64,000 nucleotides of DNA from a virus (IMGVR_UViG_3300048886_001579:432-64431), one strand, 5' to 3'; positions 2,579 through 46,421 are shown, counted from the first letter of the stretch. Numbers and translations are program-made. Notes: generated by a model not told the origin, from the letters alone.

Positions 2579-3262
2579 TTAATTATACCAGTTAACCTTA
2601 ACTGGACTATGGGTTTTCACACTACTAAAACTAGGAAATCGAAAATCTTCATAATGATGTTCAGTACGATGTTTGCTTTCATCTGGAATTCCAACTCCCA
2701 TCAACAAAAAAACTTTACTGCCCAATATTGTATTGATTTCTTCTTCCATACAACCACAACATCCACTAGCATAACCCAACTGAGTTGATATAAGTTTTAC
2801 ATATCCAGCCGCAATTCCAACAGATGTTAGTACATCTTTAGTCCAACATACATCATCATATTTTGTATCTTCATTGGCACTAAAAGCAAGAAGTAAATGG
2901 GCCAATGTTTGAGGATTCGTTTTAAATTCAATAGAAGGAGTGGGATTCTTCGCTTTATCTCTTTCTTCTCGGTTTTTTCTATCTGATCCTTCCGAAACGG
3001 CTTTAGAATAATCAGAAAGTTTCATAGACGGATCAATTGGAAAACATTCAGTGGCCGAATGAATCTTTTCAATTGTGTCTCTATTAGTGATTACTGAAAC
3101 ATCGAAAAAATTAATATTCTGTCGAGAAGGACAATGAGTAACCGCCTCCATAATCAAATCAACATCTTCTTGAGGCATTTCTTTATCGAGATCCCAATTT
3201 CTTTGACATTTTTGTGATTCATGAATAGCTCTTTTGAGTTGATCTTTGTATGATCCATGCAT
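2579..3262 (-). CDS. Nitroreductase-family flavoprotein
   Basis: SQKCQRNWD...CPSRQN FMN-binding pattern; GYASGCCGC and LLMGVG segments. Confidence 0.75.
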   Translation of the reverse strand: MHGSYKDQLKRAIHESQKCQRNWDLDKEMPQEDVDLIMEAVTHCPSRQNINFFDVSVITNRDTIEKIHSATECFPIDPSMKLSDYSKAVSEGSDRKNREERDKAKNPTPSIEFKTNPQTLAHLLLAFSANEDTKYDDVCWTKDVLTSVGIAAGYVKLISTQLGYASGCCGCMEEEINTILGSKVFLLMGVGIPDESKHRTEHHYEDFRFPSFSSVKTHSPVKVNWYN

Positions 3263-3278
3263 GAGGCTCTTTCTTTTT

Positions 3279-3668
3279 TTAAGTTTTTGCTTCTTGTTTA
3301 TTCTTATAATCTAATATTGCCGCTTTTATAGCATCTTCTGCTAATACTGAACAATGAATTTTGACAGGAGGAAGCGACAATTCTTCTACAAGTTCTGTAT
3401 TTGTAACTGTCTGGGCTTCATCTAACGTTTTATCTTTAATCCACTCAGTAGCAAGACTACTTGTAGCAATAGCACTACCACAACCAAATGTTTTAAATTT
3501 AGTATCAACAATTTTATCATTTTCATCTACTTTTATTTGTATTTTCATTACATCACCACATTCGGGTGCGCCAACCAATCCTGTACCAACGCTTGGATCA
3601 TTTTTATCAAAACTTCCAATATTTTTGGGGTTTTCAAAATGATCTAATACTTTATCTGAATATGCCAT
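3279..3668 (-). CDS. iscU: Fe-S cluster scaffold IscU
   Basis: YSDKVLDHFENPKN, GAPECGDVM, FKTFGCGSAIA, LPPVKIHCSVLAEDA. Confidence 0.97.
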   Translation of the reverse strand: MAYSDKVLDHFENPKNIGSFDKNDPSVGTGLVGAPECGDVMKIQIKVDENDKIVDTKFKTFGCGSAIATSSLATEWIKDKTLDEAQTVTNTELVEELSLPPVKIHCSVLAEDAIKAAILDYKNKQEAKT

Positions 3669-3669
3669 A

Positions 3670-4029
3670 TTATTTTATCCATGAAGGTGTAAACACTTCT
3701 TCTTGTTTAATTGAAAAACTAGTAGAACAACCACATGTTGATTGTGCTTTAGGATTTTGAAATCTTGGTCCTGGTGCGGATAAGTCTGTTGACCAATCTA
3801 TTTCTAAACCATCTACTATCAAATGACTCTTTCTGTCTATTACTATAGGCATACCTCCAGATTCAAAACACAAATCTCTTTTAGATGGTTTACCAAATTC
3901 TAAAATATATTCATAACCAGCACATCCACCGCCCTTAACAGCTACCCTCAAAGGAATTTCTTCAGACAATTCTTCATCTTCACGAATTCTCTTAAAATTT
4001 TTAGCCGCTTTTTCTGTTAAACTGATCAT
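3670..4029 (-). CDS. iscA: A-type Fe-S carrier IscA/ErpA (HesB family)
   Basis: VKGGGCAG and NPKAQSTCGCSTSF motifs. Confidence 0.92.
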   Translation of the reverse strand: MISLTEKAAKNFKRIREDEELSEEIPLRVAVKGGGCAGYEYILEFGKPSKRDLCFESGGMPIVIDRKSHLIVDGLEIDWSTDLSAPGPRFQNPKAQSTCGCSTSFSIKQEEVFTPSWIK

Positions 4030-4080: not shown

Positions 4081-4308
4081 TTACTTCTTTTCTACGAATT
4101 CATACAACTCAGTTGCCTTCTTCTTTATATCCTCAATGGAATATGAATCGGGCTGAAGTTCATTCCAGAGCTTCATATTAGCTTCGCCGTTATCTTTTGC
4201 AAGATCCCAAGCATTGTAAACAAAGTCTTGGTTGCGTTGAGCTTGTTCTTGGAGATAACCCTGTGCCATCTCTAATAGTTTGAATCGTAGTTCGAATGGA
4301 TTAGACAT
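4081..4308 (-). CDS. Conserved T4-like small hypothetical protein (MSNPFELRFKLLEMAQ...)
   Basis: AGGA RBS before ATG 4308; the longer track start (4368) overlaps the tmRNA. Confidence 0.75.
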   Translation of the reverse strand: MSNPFELRFKLLEMAQGYLQEQAQRNQDFVYNAWDLAKDNGEANMKLWNELQPDSYSIEDIKKKATELYEFVEKK

Positions 4309-4387
4309 ATTGTCCTTTCTCTGTGTGTGTTTATGTGTGTAATGGATTGTTTCTGTTCCGAGGCACAATCCCCAAGCCCGTCAGCAA

Positions 4388-4435
4388 TTAAGCGGCTAAT
4401 GCCACCTGTGCTGGATAATAATCGTTATTATTTGC
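4388..4435 (-). other. tmRNA tag reading frame ANNNDYYPAQVALAA*
   Basis: GCA resume codon, AN.. start and ALAA-stop end typical of SsrA tags. Confidence 0.9.
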
Positions 4436-4525
4436 GATTAAATTAAATGACATTTTACATCTGTCAAGATGGTCTCCTCTGCATAATCACATTCAATCGA
4501 ATTCTATTACAGCCCCATCAAAGAA

Positions 4526-4609
4526 TTACATGCTATAATTAAGATAAAACCATGCTATACCCATTCCCAATAATGTCAGAGTAAAAAACCATGTTAATAC
4601 TTTATCCAT
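4526..4609 (-). CDS. 27-aa single-TM peptide MDKVLTWFFTLTLLGMGIAWFYLNYSM inside the tmRNA intervening segment
   Basis: AAGGA RBS directly after the CCA end; ATG..TAA fills 84 of ~102 nt of the spacer; hydrophobic. Confidence 0.6.
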   Translation of the reverse strand: MDKVLTWFFTLTLLGMGIAWFYLNYSM

Positions 4610-4682
4610 ATAATCCTTTGGTGGAGCTGATCGGAATCGCACCGATGTCTTAAATGCTACTCTACAGTATCATCAACTAAAA

Positions 4683-5048
4683 CTATTTAGACAAATCCTG
4701 TGTCACATCTTTAATTTTTTCTATTTGTTTCATAATAATTTGTTCACGTTTTGGCCAATAAATATAGTCTTTTTCTGGATTTTTCATAAGATTGTATAAA
4801 ATAGGTAAAATTAATTCTTCTACTTTACCCATATCTTCTACATATTTTTCTTCTAGATAATCTTTTTTATAACCTATTTCTTTTATAGCAGAATCTATTT
4901 TCTTTTCCAATGCTGAAAAATCTTTTGACTTTGCTTCTACTTGTTCAATCTTTTTTTCTACTTCTGTAGTTTTTGCTTTATATTCTTCATCATCTACTGC
5001 GGAAAAACCGAAGTCAAAATTAGCATATTCTTCAGGTATTTGTGCCAT
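4683..5048 (-). CDS. Conserved T4-like hypothetical protein (..DFGFSAVD...YIYWPKR..)
   Basis: ORF; start trimmed to MAQIPEEY. Confidence 0.7.
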   Translation of the reverse strand: MAQIPEEYANFDFGFSAVDDEEYKAKTTEVEKKIEQVEAKSKDFSALEKKIDSAIKEIGYKKDYLEEKYVEDMGKVEELILPILYNLMKNPEKDYIYWPKREQIIMKQIEKIKDVTQDLSK

Positions 5049-5613
5049 GTTCGTATCCGTATTTGCAAATCCAATAAGAGTCAACTATATCTGAAATGGG
5101 ATTTTTATCACACTTTGTTTGAAATTCTTTTGCAAGTTCTCTCTGTGTGTCAGACACAAAAGAATCATACATTAATTCTTTATTTGCGTTTCCCTTATCG
5201 GATGCGTATTTTTTGATTACTGTGGGAGGTATCATTTCATACCTCAATTTACAGTTGATTAAAGCATATTTTAAAATTGCCATATTTTCCGCAATTTGTA
5301 AAACTCTTTGTCCACTTGCGGAGTAGGCGTAATTTTCAATATAGACTATTTTGGGTCTTTTAGTGAATTGTATAATACATTCTATTACCCAAGAAGATAA
5401 TCCCGTATATCTTTCCATCTCTGTATTATATTTAGGATATTTTGTAATTTCAATATTTTTTAAAGGACCCCATCTATCAAGTTGTCTATCATTTTTTGCT
5501 AAACAATAATGTTTAATATTTTCATATTTCCATTCACCATGACATTCTGTTATTGCTGGACTTGTTAATGAATAATCTATTCCCACATGAAAATCATCTA
5601 TCCCAGTTATCAT
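5032..5613 (-). CDS. RuvC-like (RNase H fold) nuclease / Holliday junction resolvase
   Basis: GIDYSLTSPA, IENYAY, PTVIKKYA..KGNANKE, DIVDSYWI acidic motifs. Confidence 0.7.
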   Translation of the reverse strand: MITGIDDFHVGIDYSLTSPAITECHGEWKYENIKHYCLAKNDRQLDRWGPLKNIEITKYPKYNTEMERYTGLSSWVIECIIQFTKRPKIVYIENYAYSASGQRVLQIAENMAILKYALINCKLRYEMIPPTVIKKYASDKGNANKELMYDSFVSDTQRELAKEFQTKCDKNPISDIVDSYWICKYGYEHGTNT

Positions 5614-5749
5614 CTTCGTCTTCTTCTGATAATTCTATCATTTCTCCACAATAAGAACAAAATTGTACTCGTTCACTTTCATCATCATGAACTATAACTT
5701 CATACATTTTAGAGCAAAATGTACATTCAATTTTTTCAATTATTTCCAT
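5594..5749 (-). CDS. Small zinc-ribbon protein (CTFC...CSYC, acidic tail; 51 aa)
   Basis: Hand-translated; two CxxC pairs; overlaps both neighbours. Confidence 0.75.
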   Translation of the reverse strand: MEIIEKIECTFCSKMYEVIVHDDESERVQFCSYCGEMIELSEEDEDDNWDR

Positions 5750-6002
5750 TTTTGACTAATTCTTCCTCTAATTCTTCTACAGTCAGAAAAACTTTACCAT
5801 CCAAAAAAATTTGAGGAATCTTTTTACTTCCTGTAACGGTCAATATTTTACCAAACAGTCTCTTATCTGCTTGAATGAACATGTATTGTGTTTTGTGTTT
5901 ATCTAATAAAGACTTTGCTTTGTCACACATTGCACATTCACGAAAAGTAAAATGTCCAACAACATAATTTCCTTTATTAAAATCTATTTCATATTTTAAC
6001 AT
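5736..6002 (-). CDS. Glutaredoxin/NrdH-like redoxin
   Basis: CAMC active site, KIPQIFLDG; TAATG-coupled to the RNR stop. Confidence 0.85.
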   Translation of the reverse strand: MLKYEIDFNKGNYVVGHFTFRECAMCDKAKSLLDKHKTQYMFIQADKRLFGKILTVTGSKKIPQIFLDGKVFLTVEELEEELVKNGNN

Positions 6003-7933
6003 TATAAATCCACTACTTCGCATCCACCATCAGCGGCACAGGCCAATTCCTGTGATCCAGAGGTGAAATCTTTTTCTTCATATGAAGACAATAAAGTCCA
6101 ATCAACATTTTTGGGCATTGCTTTTAACGATTTTATATATTCTTCCCGTGTGCAATCTTGATAAGGAGCCTGTCTGTATGTGTGTTCAGAAAAAGGCAGA
6201 AAAGATATACCGCTAATATTATCAAAATTGTTCCATACCCAATTTCCCATTTCAACCCATTCTGGTTCTTTAACGGAAATAGTAACAGATGGTTTGTGTT
6301 CACACCAATGTTCTTGATATGTAGACCAAAGATTTAATTGTTCTATTGCAGTTATATCAGTTCTACATATTGCATTTTTTGGACTCTTCACAGGAAATGA
6401 AAATACCGTTGTGTGTTTGGGTTTCATTACATCTGGTTCATTTGGAAAGTTTGCATCTTTCATAAACTTACAAAGGGGGTCTTTATTATCCGCACGAACC
6501 GTTCTAATATAATATGGATTATGACGAGCATGTATACCACTAGCACTATCAACCAACTGGCTAACTGTGCCAGAAGGTTTAACACAGGTGATAGCCGCCG
6601 ATTGGGATATTCCGAGTTTTTCTGAGAATTCTTTGTTTGTTTTGATTGCAACATTTTTTAACTCATTTAAAAGTTGTTCTAAATTTCCTTTTTTTCCGTT
6701 TGTTAAAGAATTGTCCATTATTCCTGTAAGGGAGACGCCCAAAAGCCGCTCTTCATCACAATTCTTTTTCCACTCTCTTGAGAGATATTTGAAACTGGTG
6801 AGGGTCGATTGAAATGTTCCAAGGATAGTTGCAGTTCGAACTTTTTCTTCCAAAGATTTGGAATCGTCCCATCCTCTGACCACGACTTCTGAAAGGTTGC
6901 AGAATTCTCTGCTTCTAAGTATAATCTCGCTACACGGATTGGTACCAAAATCGTCTTTTGGTTCTCTTCGGATTTCTTCTTCACTATTTAACCTTTCTAC
7001 TTGTTGTTTAGCCGCTAAACTATTATAAATTCCTCGTTCTCCAGATTTTGAATCATAAAGAGACAACCATTCTCTCATAAAAGTACCAACATCTGGTTTT
7101 TCTTTATAATTTACAGAATTATTAGCAAGGGATCTTTGCGGTTGTGTTTCCCACCACTTTCCCGACTTTGCATGTCTCATTGTTTCATCATTAAGATTAG
7201 ATAAACTAATAAGTGCTGATCTACGAACACCCCCTACAACAACTATTTCTGCAATTTTACATACGATATCATGAGCTTCAACAGATTTCAATTTTCTTCC
7301 AGAAGCATCTTGAAATGTATTTATAGTAAATAGAAAAAGGTCTTCTAATGGCTCTGGTCCCGATGCTCTTCCTCCAAAGGTTTTAAGAGGAGATCCCGCA
7401 GGTCTTACATTAGATAAATCCCATTTTGGAATTTGTCCTTGCCAAACTAATGAAAGTAATTCTTTATATGATTTTGCCCACCCCAGTTTTGAATCTGCTA
7501 CAACAATTGTAGTATCCGTTTCATAAAATTCTTCTGCTACTACTGGAAGCTGATTAACATATTCCTCTTCCACAGAAAATCCCACACCTGTTCCATTCAT
7601 TAAAACATATAAAACTTCATCAAATGAACGTGGGTCATCTATTTTAACATAGGAACAATTATAACCTGCTATATTTTCTTTTTTGAGTGCTTCTCCAGCG
7701 GTCATTAAACATCTCATTGATGGCATTACCTCACAATTTGTAATTGCTTCACGTAAATCTGCCTCTAAACCATTATCAAGAATAAAATTGTGTTTAGCCT
7801 CTAAATGTTCTTTAAAAAAATTCAAATATCTATTAACTGTTTCATCCCAGGTTTCCCGTCTTTTAAGACCATAGTCCCATCTTGCGTATCTTGATAAATG
7901 TATAAATGATTGATATTCAGTAGGTAGAGGCAT
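6002..7933 (-). CDS. nrdJ: Class II (adenosylcobalamin-dependent) ribonucleotide reductase
   Basis: YNCSY, GGVRRSA, TNPCSEI.L...FCNLSE, TCVKPSGTVSQL, C-terminal LACAADGGCE. Confidence 0.93.
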   Translation of the reverse strand: MPLPTEYQSFIHLSRYARWDYGLKRRETWDETVNRYLNFFKEHLEAKHNFILDNGLEADLREAITNCEVMPSMRCLMTAGEALKKENIAGYNCSYVKIDDPRSFDEVLYVLMNGTGVGFSVEEEYVNQLPVVAEEFYETDTTIVVADSKLGWAKSYKELLSLVWQGQIPKWDLSNVRPAGSPLKTFGGRASGPEPLEDLFLFTINTFQDASGRKLKSVEAHDIVCKIAEIVVVGGVRRSALISLSNLNDETMRHAKSGKWWETQPQRSLANNSVNYKEKPDVGTFMREWLSLYDSKSGERGIYNSLAAKQQVERLNSEEEIRREPKDDFGTNPCSEIILRSREFCNLSEVVVRGWDDSKSLEEKVRTATILGTFQSTLTSFKYLSREWKKNCDEERLLGVSLTGIMDNSLTNGKKGNLEQLLNELKNVAIKTNKEFSEKLGISQSAAITCVKPSGTVSQLVDSASGIHARHNPYYIRTVRADNKDPLCKFMKDANFPNEPDVMKPKHTTVFSFPVKSPKNAICRTDITAIEQLNLWSTYQEHWCEHKPSVTISVKEPEWVEMGNWVWNNFDNISGISFLPFSEHTYRQAPYQDCTREEYIKSLKAMPKNVDWTLLSSYEEKDFTSGSQELACAADGGCEVVDL

Positions 7934-8769
7934 TATTCAACTCCTTTCAGCTTTTCTAAAAATTCTTTTGATTCTCGTTCAGACAATCCATACTTTGACA
8001 TAACCCAACTACCATTTAAATTGTCTTTTATAATTTTCATTTCTTTCTGTGAAAAAGTTACAGAATTAAACATATAATCTTCGAATGCTTCACAACATAT
8101 AGGAAACTCTGGTTTTACCAATTCATACATTGCTTCTGCAAACTCTCTTGTTTCTTGTTGTGTATGAGAGTCCATTCTCAAATTACAGAACTTAAAAAAG
8201 TTATTCAAATCTATTTTCCAAATACATTCTGTATAATTTGAAACTGGTAGAATTACTCTTGCTAATTCTCTTGCAATTCCTTTAAATCCTTCATAAAACC
8301 CATCTAATTCATTAGGTTCTGAGATTTGCCTATAACATCCTTTTGCGTGTTCATTAACATCATACATTCGTCCAAGGACAAGCTGTTTGTTGTCTTCATT
8401 TATTTCTTTTCCTCGACCTTGATTATTTTGTTCTGATTGTTCGTGTACATCTTTTTCCGCAGGCAAATAAAAATCATCACTCATAATAGAATAACGACCT
8501 GAATATTCATTTATATTAGCAGTTCTGTGTCTAACAATTTGTCTCATCACAAATATTGGTAGCTTTAAATGAAACTTCACTTCACACATCTCAAATGGTG
8601 ATGTGTGATTATGTCTCATTAAATATCGAATTAGGTTTCTTGTCTGTGAAACTTTTCGTGTTCCAGTTCCGTAACTAATTCTTGCGGCATTTTCAACTTC
8701 TTCATCATTACCCATCACTTCTAATAATTTAACAAAACCGTGCTTATGCACTTGTTTTTCACTTATCAT
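7933..8769 (-). CDS. thyX: Flavin-dependent thymidylate synthase
   Basis: AARISY, HTSPFE, RHRTANINEYSGRY, LRMDSHTQQETRE. Confidence 0.95.
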   Translation of the reverse strand: MISEKQVHKHGFVKLLEVMGNDEEVENAARISYGTGTRKVSQTRNLIRYLMRHNHTSPFEMCEVKFHLKLPIFVMRQIVRHRTANINEYSGRYSIMSDDFYLPAEKDVHEQSEQNNQGRGKEINEDNKQLVLGRMYDVNEHAKGCYRQISEPNELDGFYEGFKGIARELARVILPVSNYTECIWKIDLNNFFKFCNLRMDSHTQQETREFAEAMYELVKPEFPICCEAFEDYMFNSVTFSQKEMKIIKDNLNGSWVMSKYGLSERESKEFLEKLKGVE

Positions 8770-44709: not shown

Positions 44710-46421
44710 TGTACTATTCTGCTAAAATTTTTAACTTTTTGAAATTTAATCATGTGTTGAAATTTATCATAAAGTATTTCCCCCTTATGACTTATCACAA
44801 ACACATTTGATGCATTACCAAGAGAGTGTATTATTTTAAGAAAATCACTTGTTCCATCTTCATCAAGTGAACTATCAAACACCTCATCTAATATGAGTAA
44901 ATTCGTACTCATACTATTTTTTAATTTAGCAATTGCTCTCCATGTAAAAAGCAAAGCCAAATCAATACGCATTTTTTCCCCTTCACTAAAAGAAGCATAA
45001 GTAAATTCATCACGAAATCTAGATTTAATCGTTTCATTAAAATTTTCATCAAGATTAAATGAAACATAAAAATCCATCTTTGACAAATATTTGTTAATTA
45101 ATTTATTCATAATAGGAAGATATTTTTTAACAATTAATGTTTTAATACCCCCATCTTTCAACAAAACACTTGCAGTATCATATATAGATTGTAAATTACT
45201 ATGTTGCTCTTTTAATGATGTAAAAGTTTTTAAATCTGATTTTAATTTTTTCAATTTCACAGAAGCATCTGAAACATCTGCATCATTTTCGTTTAATTGT
45301 TGTATTTCTACATTTATCTTTTCAATATATTGATTAATAGCAAATATTGAAGCATTGTGTTTTGTTACGACACCTTGAATTTCTGTAATTTTTTCTTGAG
45401 TAGTCTGCATTTCAGAAATAACGAAAAGAGATTCCTTAATATCTGCTCCTATTTTATTAATTCCATCACTTAACTCTGTTTTTTTCTCTTCTTTTGAATG
45501 GATCTCACAAGTTCTATGTTCGTCATCAATTGTCTGTTTACATGTTGGACAATCTGTATTTTCATTATAAAATTCAATTTCTTTTTCAAGTTTCTTTACA
45601 TTTTTTTCAATTTCATCTTGATATTGTTCTAATTTTTGGTGTTTCTTTTGTGCTTTATCAAAATCATTAACAAGCTCTTGAAGAGTTGATACTTCTTTAT
45701 CACAATTTGCAATATGAGAATTATATTCTTCTATTTGATTATGAGACTCTTTAATTTTTTTTTGATTACCAGCAATTAATTGTTTATTGCTTTTTTTCAT
45801 TTTTGAAATAAAATCTTCTTGCAATTCTAATGCATTTTCAGTTTTTGAAAAATTCAATTCATTTTGATATTGTTCTTCTTTCAAATTAGAAACTTTACTT
45901 TTCAATAAAAAATTCATTGTAGAAAATATTTGAATATCGAGCAAATCTTCAATAATAATTCTACGATCATTTGATTTAAGTTGCATAAAAGGAACGAAAG
46001 ACGAACTACCAAGAACAACAATTTGAGTAAAAGATTTATAATTTAATTTAAGAATATTTTTTTCAAGATGTTCTTGATAATCTCTTACTTTTGCATCTTG
46101 ATTTATTAATGTTCCATCAACTTCAATTTCAAATAGATTTGGTTTTATTCCTCTACGAACAAGATAGTGTCTATTACCAATTGAAAATTCTGTTTCAATA
46201 AGACAATTTCTATCATTAATTGAATTGATAATTTGAGACTTATTAATATTACGAAATGCTTTTCCGAATAGACTAAAGGTAAGAGCATCTAATATTGTAG
46301 ATTTACCAGACCCATTTTCTCCAACAATCAAAGTTGTTGGATTTTTGTCTAAATCAATTTCAATAAAATTTTGACCAGTGGAAAGAACATTTTTCCATCT
46401 GATCTTATGAAAATTTATCAT
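44706..46421 (-). CDS. 46: SMC/Rad50-like recombination endonuclease subunit (gp46)
   Basis: GENGSGKST, CPTC zinc hook, FSEGE, LILDE. Confidence 0.96.
   Translation of the reverse strand: MINFHKIRWKNVLSTGQNFIEIDLDKNPTTLIVGENGSGKSTILDALTFSLFGKAFRNINKSQIINSINDRNCLIETEFSIGNRHYLVRRGIKPNLFEIEVDGTLINQDAKVRDYQEHLEKNILKLNYKSFTQIVVLGSSSFVPFMQLKSNDRRIIIEDLLDIQIFSTMNFLLKSKVSNLKEEQYQNELNFSKTENALELQEDFISKMKKSNKQLIAGNQKKIKESHNQIEEYNSHIANCDKEVSTLQELVNDFDKAQKKHQKLEQYQDEIEKNVKKLEKEIEFYNENTDCPTCKQTIDDEHRTCEIHSKEEKKTELSDGINKIGADIKESLFVISEMQTTQEKITEIQGVVTKHNASIFAINQYIEKINVEIQQLNENDADVSDASVKLKKLKSDLKTFTSLKEQHSNLQSIYDTASVLLKDGGIKTLIVKKYLPIMNKLINKYLSKMDFYVSFNLDENFNETIKSRFRDEFTYASFSEGEKMRIDLALLFTWRAIAKLKNSMSTNLLILDEVFDSSLDEDGTSDFLKIIHSLGNASNVFVISHKGEILYDKFQHMIKFQKVKNFSRIVQ

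Follow-up and report, generated by a model that had tools for sequence, protein, structure and literature searches.

A probable small membrane-peptide gene in the intervening sequence of permuted tmRNAs of marine T4-like phages

Permuted genes for the ribosome-rescue RNA (tmRNA), whose mature form is in two pieces, contain an intervening sequence (IVS, defined in PMC11915505), which has so far been treated as a disposable spacer. Several kinds of cargo have been described for tmRNA genes. Group I introns are found in the T-loop, with homing-endonuclease genes in 36 of 883 intron forms, and the contents reported for permuted IVSs are a tRNA-Ala gene or a repeat element (PMC11915505). These cases and the locus described here have in common that parts removed from the mature RNA tolerate insertions and can carry genes, but the known cargo consists of self-splicing introns or RNA genes. 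The survey in PMC11915505, which covers 97,179 sequences, lists unusual IVS contents, and no protein-coding ORF in a permuted IVS is among them. A full-text literature search likewise gave no description of such an ORF, in line with the original prediction, a note made from the DNA alone, which knew of no described case.

Protein genes within removed parts of stable-RNA genes are already known in other forms. In Coxiella burnetii, the S23p ORF lies in a 23S rRNA IVS that is excised by RNase III; the protein is apparently not made in vivo and the ORF is decaying (PMC4990558). In common with what is seen or expected of the IVS described here, the Coxiella IVS is closed by a stem, excised from the precursor of a stable RNA, not re-ligated, and contains an ORF, and it shares with the tmRNA IVS cargo that it is horizontally acquired and dispensable for RNA function. 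However, the host RNA and the position differ, and for the tmRNA IVS removal by RNase P and 3' trimming is expected instead of RNase III. The S23p ORF has no good native ribosome-binding site (RBS), whereas the tmRNA IVS ORFs have an SD, show purifying selection and belong to several families. No S23p Pfam match was obtained for the peptide described here or for nine other IVS ORFs, and the conserved closing stem that is shared with the rRNA-type IVS is a likeness of architecture only.

Among the marine T4-like phages, permuted tmRNAs of the alpha type are present in Melnitz, Mosig and HTVC008M (PMC9004378). As at the locus described here, RF04321 matches in all three and the IVS is closed by a stem. 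Mosig and HTVC008M differ in that their IVS is 44-49 nt long and holds no ORF. In Melnitz, the IVS of about 135 nt has GGAG-N7-ATG and an unrelated basic-protein ORF (locus L112:585-770 of our set; MZ577097.1, about 46084-46270), which has no stop codon in the IVS and continues into the coding piece; RNase P cleavage would turn this ORF into a non-stop message. Its SD lies outside the closing stem, so the sequestration of the SD discussed below is not universal. The GenBank record of Melnitz annotates 'tmRNA' only, with no CDS inside it, and PMC9004378, which treats the Melnitz tmRNA and a riboswitch, contains no IVS ORF.

The DNA analyzed here (the window) is a stretch of 64,000 nucleotides from an IMG/VR viral contig of 64,431 b, which according to CheckV is about one third of the genome. 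It has 31% G+C, and its minus strand carries nearly all genes. Its major head (capsid) protein is 61-63% identical to those of the Pelagibacter phages HTVC008M and Mosig and of the Methylophilales phage Melnitz, T4-like Kyanoviridae of the same virus group. ARAGORN reports a permuted tmRNA at 4711-4297 on the minus strand, with a 15-residue tag ending in ALAA. The Rfam family RF04321 (tmRNA_permuted) matches a core at 4677-4388 on the same strand with 90.2 bits (gathering score 47) and covers model positions 1-213, a covariance-model score over the full model as expected for a permuted two-piece tmRNA (RF04321 / RF01849). The order of the parts is permuted, with the T-arm, the acceptor 3' strand and the CCA upstream of the 5' acceptor strand. 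By the RF04321 match and by reading of the minus strand, the acceptor piece including the T-arm is at 4619-4677 and the 102-nt IVS at 4517-4618; strand reading places the acceptor 3' strand at 4629-4623 and ACCA at 4622-4619. The coding piece (4297-4516; ARAGORN, Rfam and strand reading) contains the 5' acceptor strand GGGGCTG (4516-4510) and the tag reading frame (4435-4388), whose 15 residues end in a hydrophobic ALAA followed by a stop codon. The acceptor stem is paired in 21 of 21 relatives, all of which also keep the G3:U pair (alignment columns 7/133). As a tmRNA, it does not stand out from the permuted tmRNAs already published for marine T4-like phages, and by analogy with these its IVS would be removed from the mature two-piece RNA.

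Nearly the whole IVS (4618-4517) consists of AAGGA-N4-ATG, 27 codons and TAA. The SD-like AAGGA (4614-4618) begins at the first base after the CCA and stands 4 nt ahead of the ATG (4609-4607, from strand reading). The ORF (4526-4609, minus strand) has sense codons down to 4529 and the stop codon TAA at 4528-4526, and by comparison with relatives belongs to what we call the 'MDKV' subfamily of predicted single-pass membrane peptides. The coordinates and the layout given in the original prediction hold; the prediction had left unstated that the locus is on the minus strand. SD-like cores are found upstream of 38 of the 69 long ORFs in the window, against a background of 13%, and the start codon of the IVS ORF thus has an RBS of the type used by this genome, with a spacing at the short end of the range (AAGGA in this phage usually stands 5-9 nt before the ATG). 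A GTG-started extension of 38 aa (4642-4526), called by an ORF finder, was rejected, as it begins inside the T-arm and has no RBS. As an estimate of chance, complete ATG ORFs with 27 or more codons occurred in 2% of IVS sequences after dinucleotide shuffling, and in 0.8% of 102-nt segments drawn at random from the antisense strand of the window. Taken alone the ORF is therefore only mildly unlikely, and the weight of the argument comes from its relatives.

Relatives were gathered by two exact-pattern scans of IMG/VR, one for the T-arm/CCA and one for the start of the coding piece, and a few misbinned MAG contigs were added. The resulting set comprises 95 loci whose IVS is complete, with 62 different IVS sequences; since the patterns are exact and draw on one tmRNA lineage, the class frequencies below are not population estimates. 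All tested relatives are full-length RF04321 matches of 61-117 bits, irrespective of what the IVS holds, and ARAGORN, which misses many relatives detected by Rfam, found intact tags in many of them. An SD-led ORF is present in 73 of the 95 loci. In 61 loci (43 unique IVSs of 96-114 nt, type A) it encodes a predicted single-pass membrane peptide of 27-32 aa, and in 12 loci (11 unique IVSs of 176-366 nt, type B) a basic, hydrophilic protein of 50-59 aa. Short, empty IVSs of 15-33 nt without an ORF make up 20 loci (7 unique). The remaining two loci (L008 and L064) share one 42-nt IVS, a deletion derivative that has lost 61 nt from the middle of a type A ORF and retains the type A ends, with the SD, the ATG and both strands of the closing stem. 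Type A peptides have a charged N-terminus, a hydrophobic stretch of about 20 residues and an aromatic C-terminus, and fall into several subfamilies with little mutual sequence similarity; type B proteins have a conserved acidic-aromatic C-terminus. Every ORF-bearing IVS has a purine-rich SD-like motif right after the CCA and an ATG 4-15 nt into the IVS. Whatever the cargo, the IVS nearly always ends in TTGAT before the GGGG, and the base before G1 is always U; in the largest type A subfamily, the TGA of this terminal TTGAT is the stop codon of the ORF.

Conservation of the frame, which the original prediction had made the measure of its proposal, is thus found well beyond the window: 54 of the 62 unique IVSs retain the frame and its length class together with the ATG and the SD. 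The largest type A subfamily comprises 29 distinct nucleotide sequences with a constant length of 103 nt and no frameshift or internal stop. Its pooled pN/pS, corresponding to the dN/dS comparison that had been proposed, is 0.47 when read in the ORF frame, while the two other frames give 0.76 and 1.23; dN/dS is thus moderately below 1, from pairwise counts that are not corrected for phylogeny. Among 41 distinct non-synonymous variants in the membrane core (codons 7-25), there is not one that leads to a charged or strongly polar residue, a proline or a stop, although 37% would be expected from single-base changes (p=7e-9), and synonymous variants are in excess (p=0.015). As these counts were made pairwise or per distinct variant and without tree correction, they are supportive and not definitive. 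When the type A ORFs are grouped by their four N-terminal residues (16 groups), the frequency of T is 0.57 at codon position 2 compared with 0.31 at position 1 and 0.41 at position 3 (p=3e-11), a periodicity that looks like the signature of hydrophobic coding rather than of merely U-rich RNA. For the subfamily of the window itself, 12 IVS copies were recovered, 11 of full length and one ending at a contig end; the sources are the window, three viral or MAG loci and seven of nine metagenome pattern matches (the other two were unrelated). The frame is intact in every copy, and the differences are synonymous or conservative (V/I, L/I, F/V, S/N/I). The first and last codons of these ORFs are constrained by an RNA stem, described below, and not necessarily by the protein. 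What is expected of a small gene, a frame kept in diverged relatives together with selection at the codon level, is seen here to a moderate degree. Judged by these patterns, the IVS ORF is very probably a real, selected gene that encodes a small membrane peptide and has its RBS immediately behind the CCA, as originally proposed, and it would lie in an RNA segment that is removed during tmRNA maturation. The peptide looks like a single-pass protein of the inner membrane with its N-terminus inside. A link to the membrane proteases that handle tagged proteins is no more than conceivable.

The peptide of the window is absent from a collection of 15 billion proteins, and Pfam gave no family at E<=1 for it and none relevant for nine other IVS ORFs; PHROGs and Pfam together gave no family for any IVS ORF, type B included. 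In cultured phages, neither the window locus nor that of one relative has a DNA match, and tblastn of the peptides found a single chance match (E=0.6) inside the polymerase of a Streptococcus phage. For a cellular control, one class was used, the Alphaproteobacteria, in which RF04321 is present in 148 of 151 sampled genomes. Inspection covered the 30 loci with the highest scores plus the longest matches, and 35 IVSs were delimited by a generic stem rule, alphaproteobacterial T-loops being different from those of the phages. These IVSs are 5-133 nt long (up to 73 nt among the best-scoring loci), and none of the 35 has an SD-led ATG ORF that fills the spacer.

The content of the IVS does not follow the tmRNA around it. 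Backbone identity was taken over 70 nt before the CCA and 230 nt after the IVS. By this measure, an empty 25-nt IVS (L024) and a type A IVS (L004) are in backbones that are 97.7% identical, a type A and a type B IVS (L002 and L101) in backbones 95.7% identical, and two different membrane peptides (L048 and L005) in backbones 98.7% identical. Conversely, the window and the loci L040 and L120 have the same peptide, with one or two residues differing, in backbones of only 51-54% identity, and a further copy of this peptide (L171) goes with a different acceptor stem and tag. More generally, empty IVSs of 25-26 nt are found in backbones 91-98% identical to ORF-bearing ones. Because flank identity is uncoupled from IVS content, the IVS behaves as an exchangeable cassette slot, independent of the tmRNA backbone. 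The ORF is dispensable for the tmRNA, and an obligatory role in tmRNA maturation is unlikely, given the near-identical backbones with an empty IVS and the ORF-deleted derivative that keeps the closing stem. As unrelated cargo types share the slot and close relatives have no cargo, we regard the peptide gene as an accessory, moron-like gene in a strongly transcribed, insertion-tolerant site, and not as a component of trans-translation.

The same IVS ends that carry the RBS and the stop codon also pair with each other. In the predicted fold of the window, the acceptor stem is followed by a small internal loop and then by a 13-bp helix (4619-4607 with 4532-4520, minus strand), which folding, relatives and RNAalifold all support. 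Its 5' strand (4607-4619) consists of the last A of the CCA, the SD and the AUG, and its 3' strand (4520-4532) of the last two sense codons, the stop codon and 6 nt; the following GAU (4519-4517) is unpaired. With the last A of the CCA facing the fourth base counted from the IVS 3' end, a single register yields 9-13 pairs; this is true of each of the 41 different end-combinations among IVSs that are 25 nt or longer, whether empty, type A or type B. Over helix positions 6-13, an IVS forms on average 7.1 of 8 pairs with its own 3' end, compared with 4.9 with 3' ends from IVSs of another 5' strand. In RNAalifold of 21 diverse type A loci, one pair is GC in 9, CG in 8 and UA in 4 loci and the next is AU in 12 and UA in 9, none of them being broken. 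By these comparisons the closing stem covaries and is conserved across the cargo classes. The stem accounts for the near-invariance of the C-terminal codons in the largest subfamily, which are under constraint both as RNA and as protein. To open the region from the SD through the AUG takes a computed 16.2 kcal/mol once the precursor is folded, 9.2 kcal/mol in the excised IVS, and 3.4-4.0 kcal/mol as long as the nascent transcript stops short of the stem's 3' strand, all of these energies being in silico values. Since the closing stem sequesters both SD and AUG, folding and processing on the one hand and translation initiation on the other would be mutually exclusive on one molecule. This gives the original prediction's idea of a possible processing-controlled switch a concrete and testable form. 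In such a model translation would most likely be confined to the nascent precursor; sequestration as strong as predicted could also mean that the ORF is rarely or never translated.

No good-scoring sigma-70 promoter was found ahead of the tmRNA in the window. Just upstream, at 4683-4690 on the minus strand, is a degenerate T4-type late-promoter-like box with the core TAAATA, which overlaps the stop codon of the upstream ORF. Of 58 distinct relatives, 56 have a TAAATA core at a distance of 50-110 nt ahead of the CCA end (background 4.4%). The full T4-type late consensus TATAAATA is found in 20 of the 58 (background 0.8%), and NATAAATA upstream of the tmRNA in 34 of the 58 (background 1.7%). Two relatives (L004 and L082) have an additional sigma-70 -35/-10 pair overlapping the late-type box. 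From these promoter-like boxes, we infer that the tmRNA and its cargo are likely to be transcribed late, or early plus late.

The reading that we favor joins these elements into one sequence of events. The IVS mini-gene would be transcribed within the tmRNA precursor, probably from the late-type box just upstream. The SD and AUG would emerge directly after the CCA and stay free for about 90 nt of transcription, so that a ribosome could load on the nascent RNA; co-transcriptional loading is the most economical reading, as transcription of the stem's 3' strand would end the exposure of the RBS. Once the 3' end of the IVS is made, the SD and AUG would be taken up in the 13-bp stem, paired with the final codons and the stop codon; this stem would stack under the acceptor stem, and its closure would both shut off further initiation and join the two halves of the tRNA-like domain. 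RNase P, cutting 5' of G1, and 3' trimming to the CCA would then remove the IVS, and the two-piece tmRNA would form. The peptide would insert into the inner membrane of the host, in a role that is presumably accessory, given the close relatives that lack it. Taken as a whole, this chain of nascent translation, stem closure and IVS removal is in our judgment the best explanation of the locus, and somewhat more probable than not to be right. A more elaborate version, in which the nascent RNA offers a single opportunity for initiation, RNase P leaves the stop codon 1-9 nt from the new 3' end or, as in Melnitz, cuts it off, and late ribosomes on a non-stop message are rescued by the very same tmRNA, would make the dose of a membrane-active peptide self-limiting; this coupling of translation and maturation we hold to be distinctly unlikely.

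The template could also be the excised IVS instead of the nascent precursor. RNase P cleavage and an endonucleolytic cut behind the CCA would then release a hairpin-closed mini-mRNA of about 100 nt, whose paired ends resist exonucleases and which is translated when the stem breathes or is trimmed. With the SD starting at the first base after the CCA and, in every subfamily, 1-9 nt between the stop codon and the RNase P site, the IVS is in fact a complete minimal mRNA, and opening is cheaper in the excised IVS than in the precursor. A cost of 9 kcal/mol is still strongly inhibitory, however; any 3' trimming that exposed the SD would take the stop codon away as well, and the excised 23S rRNA IVS of Coxiella is rapidly degraded (PMC4990558), so that we consider the released IVS unlikely to be the main template. 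The short distance between the stop codon and G1 (9 nt in the window, 1 nt in the largest subfamily) suggests another fate for the same molecule, in which slight 3' trimming gives a non-stop mRNA and the phage's own tmRNA then tags the product for degradation, limiting the dose of peptide. The Melnitz ORF, which runs out of its IVS without a stop, would fit such a fate. It is a purely inferential construct, though, the paired 3' end should resist exonucleases and the type B stop codon lies well inside the IVS, and we see little chance that it applies.

Two further explanations do without a functional peptide. The ORF could act in the manner of a regulatory leader, its ribosomes holding the closing and acceptor stems open and so delaying tmRNA maturation. 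The SD/AUG and the stop are within the closing stem, directly under the acceptor stem, and a translating or terminating ribosome must therefore melt both stems. Yet the peptide is selected for a hydrophobic helix, beyond a mere open frame, unrelated cargo types occupy the same slot, and near-identical tmRNAs work with an empty 25-nt IVS, all of which makes a leader-type role very unlikely. Alternatively, the IVS might be non-coding, a structured spacer in which the hydrophobic frame is a by-product of a U-rich loop and chance. In U-rich RNA, hydrophobic residues result whichever frame is read, the conservation of both ORF ends is accounted for by the closing stem, a single ORF of this size arises in 2% of the shuffles mentioned above, and the S23p ORF in the rRNA IVS of Coxiella provides a precedent of an apparently untranslated ORF (PMC4990558). 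Against this, the frame, length class, ATG and SD persist across subfamilies of little similarity, T has a three-base periodicity, the core shows no polar replacements while the off-frames are without constraint, and the cassette is conserved where the backbone has diverged to 51% identity. A purely non-coding IVS accordingly seems to us a slender prospect.

Masking of an RBS by long-range or fold-back pairing limits translation of the MS2 maturation-protein gene and of the hok mRNA, the latter encoding a small membrane peptide. The likeness is that a segment far downstream pairs with the SD and start codon, and initiation would be possible only before the synthesis or after the removal of that segment. 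At the locus described here, the inhibitory stem doubles as the closing stem of a tmRNA IVS, and the resemblance is mechanistic only. In silico, the locus shares with hok a small hydrophobic single-pass peptide and an RBS masked by long-range pairing. A consensus scan for a promoter of an antisense RNA on the plus strand of 4517-4618 gave no promoter-like site, and the locus is not classed as a type I toxin (hok-like) module.

If these ORFs are translated, an entire lineage of abundant marine phages uses the precursor of a stable RNA as an mRNA too. The IVS slot behaves as a recombination-exchangeable site for small proteins that gene callers miss, such as that of the 84-nt ORF in the window, and offers a compact natural system for the study of competition between RNA folding or processing and translation initiation. 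It points to unannotated membrane peptides and a widespread basic protein of 50-59 aa in phages of SAR11/OM43-type hosts, which probably deploy these IVS-encoded proteins late in infection.

The two ORFs that directly flank the tmRNA in the window match no family. The downstream neighbor (4308-4084) was considered as a gp33-like coactivator and rejected; such a coactivator follows the tmRNA in Melnitz. The wider neighborhood on the minus strand (2579-4029 and 5032-8769) encodes a NifU/IscU-like Fe-S scaffold, a RuvC-like resolvase, a thioredoxin-domain protein, a ribonucleotide reductase and a ThyX-type thymidylate synthase.

Some of the relatives are on short MAG contigs assigned to phyla that do not use permuted tmRNA, and have phage-type alpha permuted tmRNAs with IVS ORFs: four loci (L114, L127, L130, L131) are in one Flavobacteriales MAG, two (L117/L129) in Chloroflexota and two (L120/L128) in Acidimicrobiaceae. 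These are probably misbinned viral contigs. One of them, L127 (G002:C175), has a 127-nt IVS with a Cys-rich ORF of 38 aa (CxC ... CxxC), possibly a third cargo type, and ARAGORN calls an atypical tag there. The type B ORF is exemplified by L076:1366-1530 (plus strand) and is also present in L020, where its C-terminus is frameshifted, L047, L068, L070, L071, L086, L090, L101 and L105. The type B protein matches 167 metagenome protein clusters at E<=0.01, all of them 'hypothetical' and one found on 107 contigs. In three long IVSs, L073 (366 nt), L083 (267 nt) and L103 (229 nt), the type B ORF is followed by 60-190 nt with short hydrophobic ORFs, and these IVSs may hold a double cargo.
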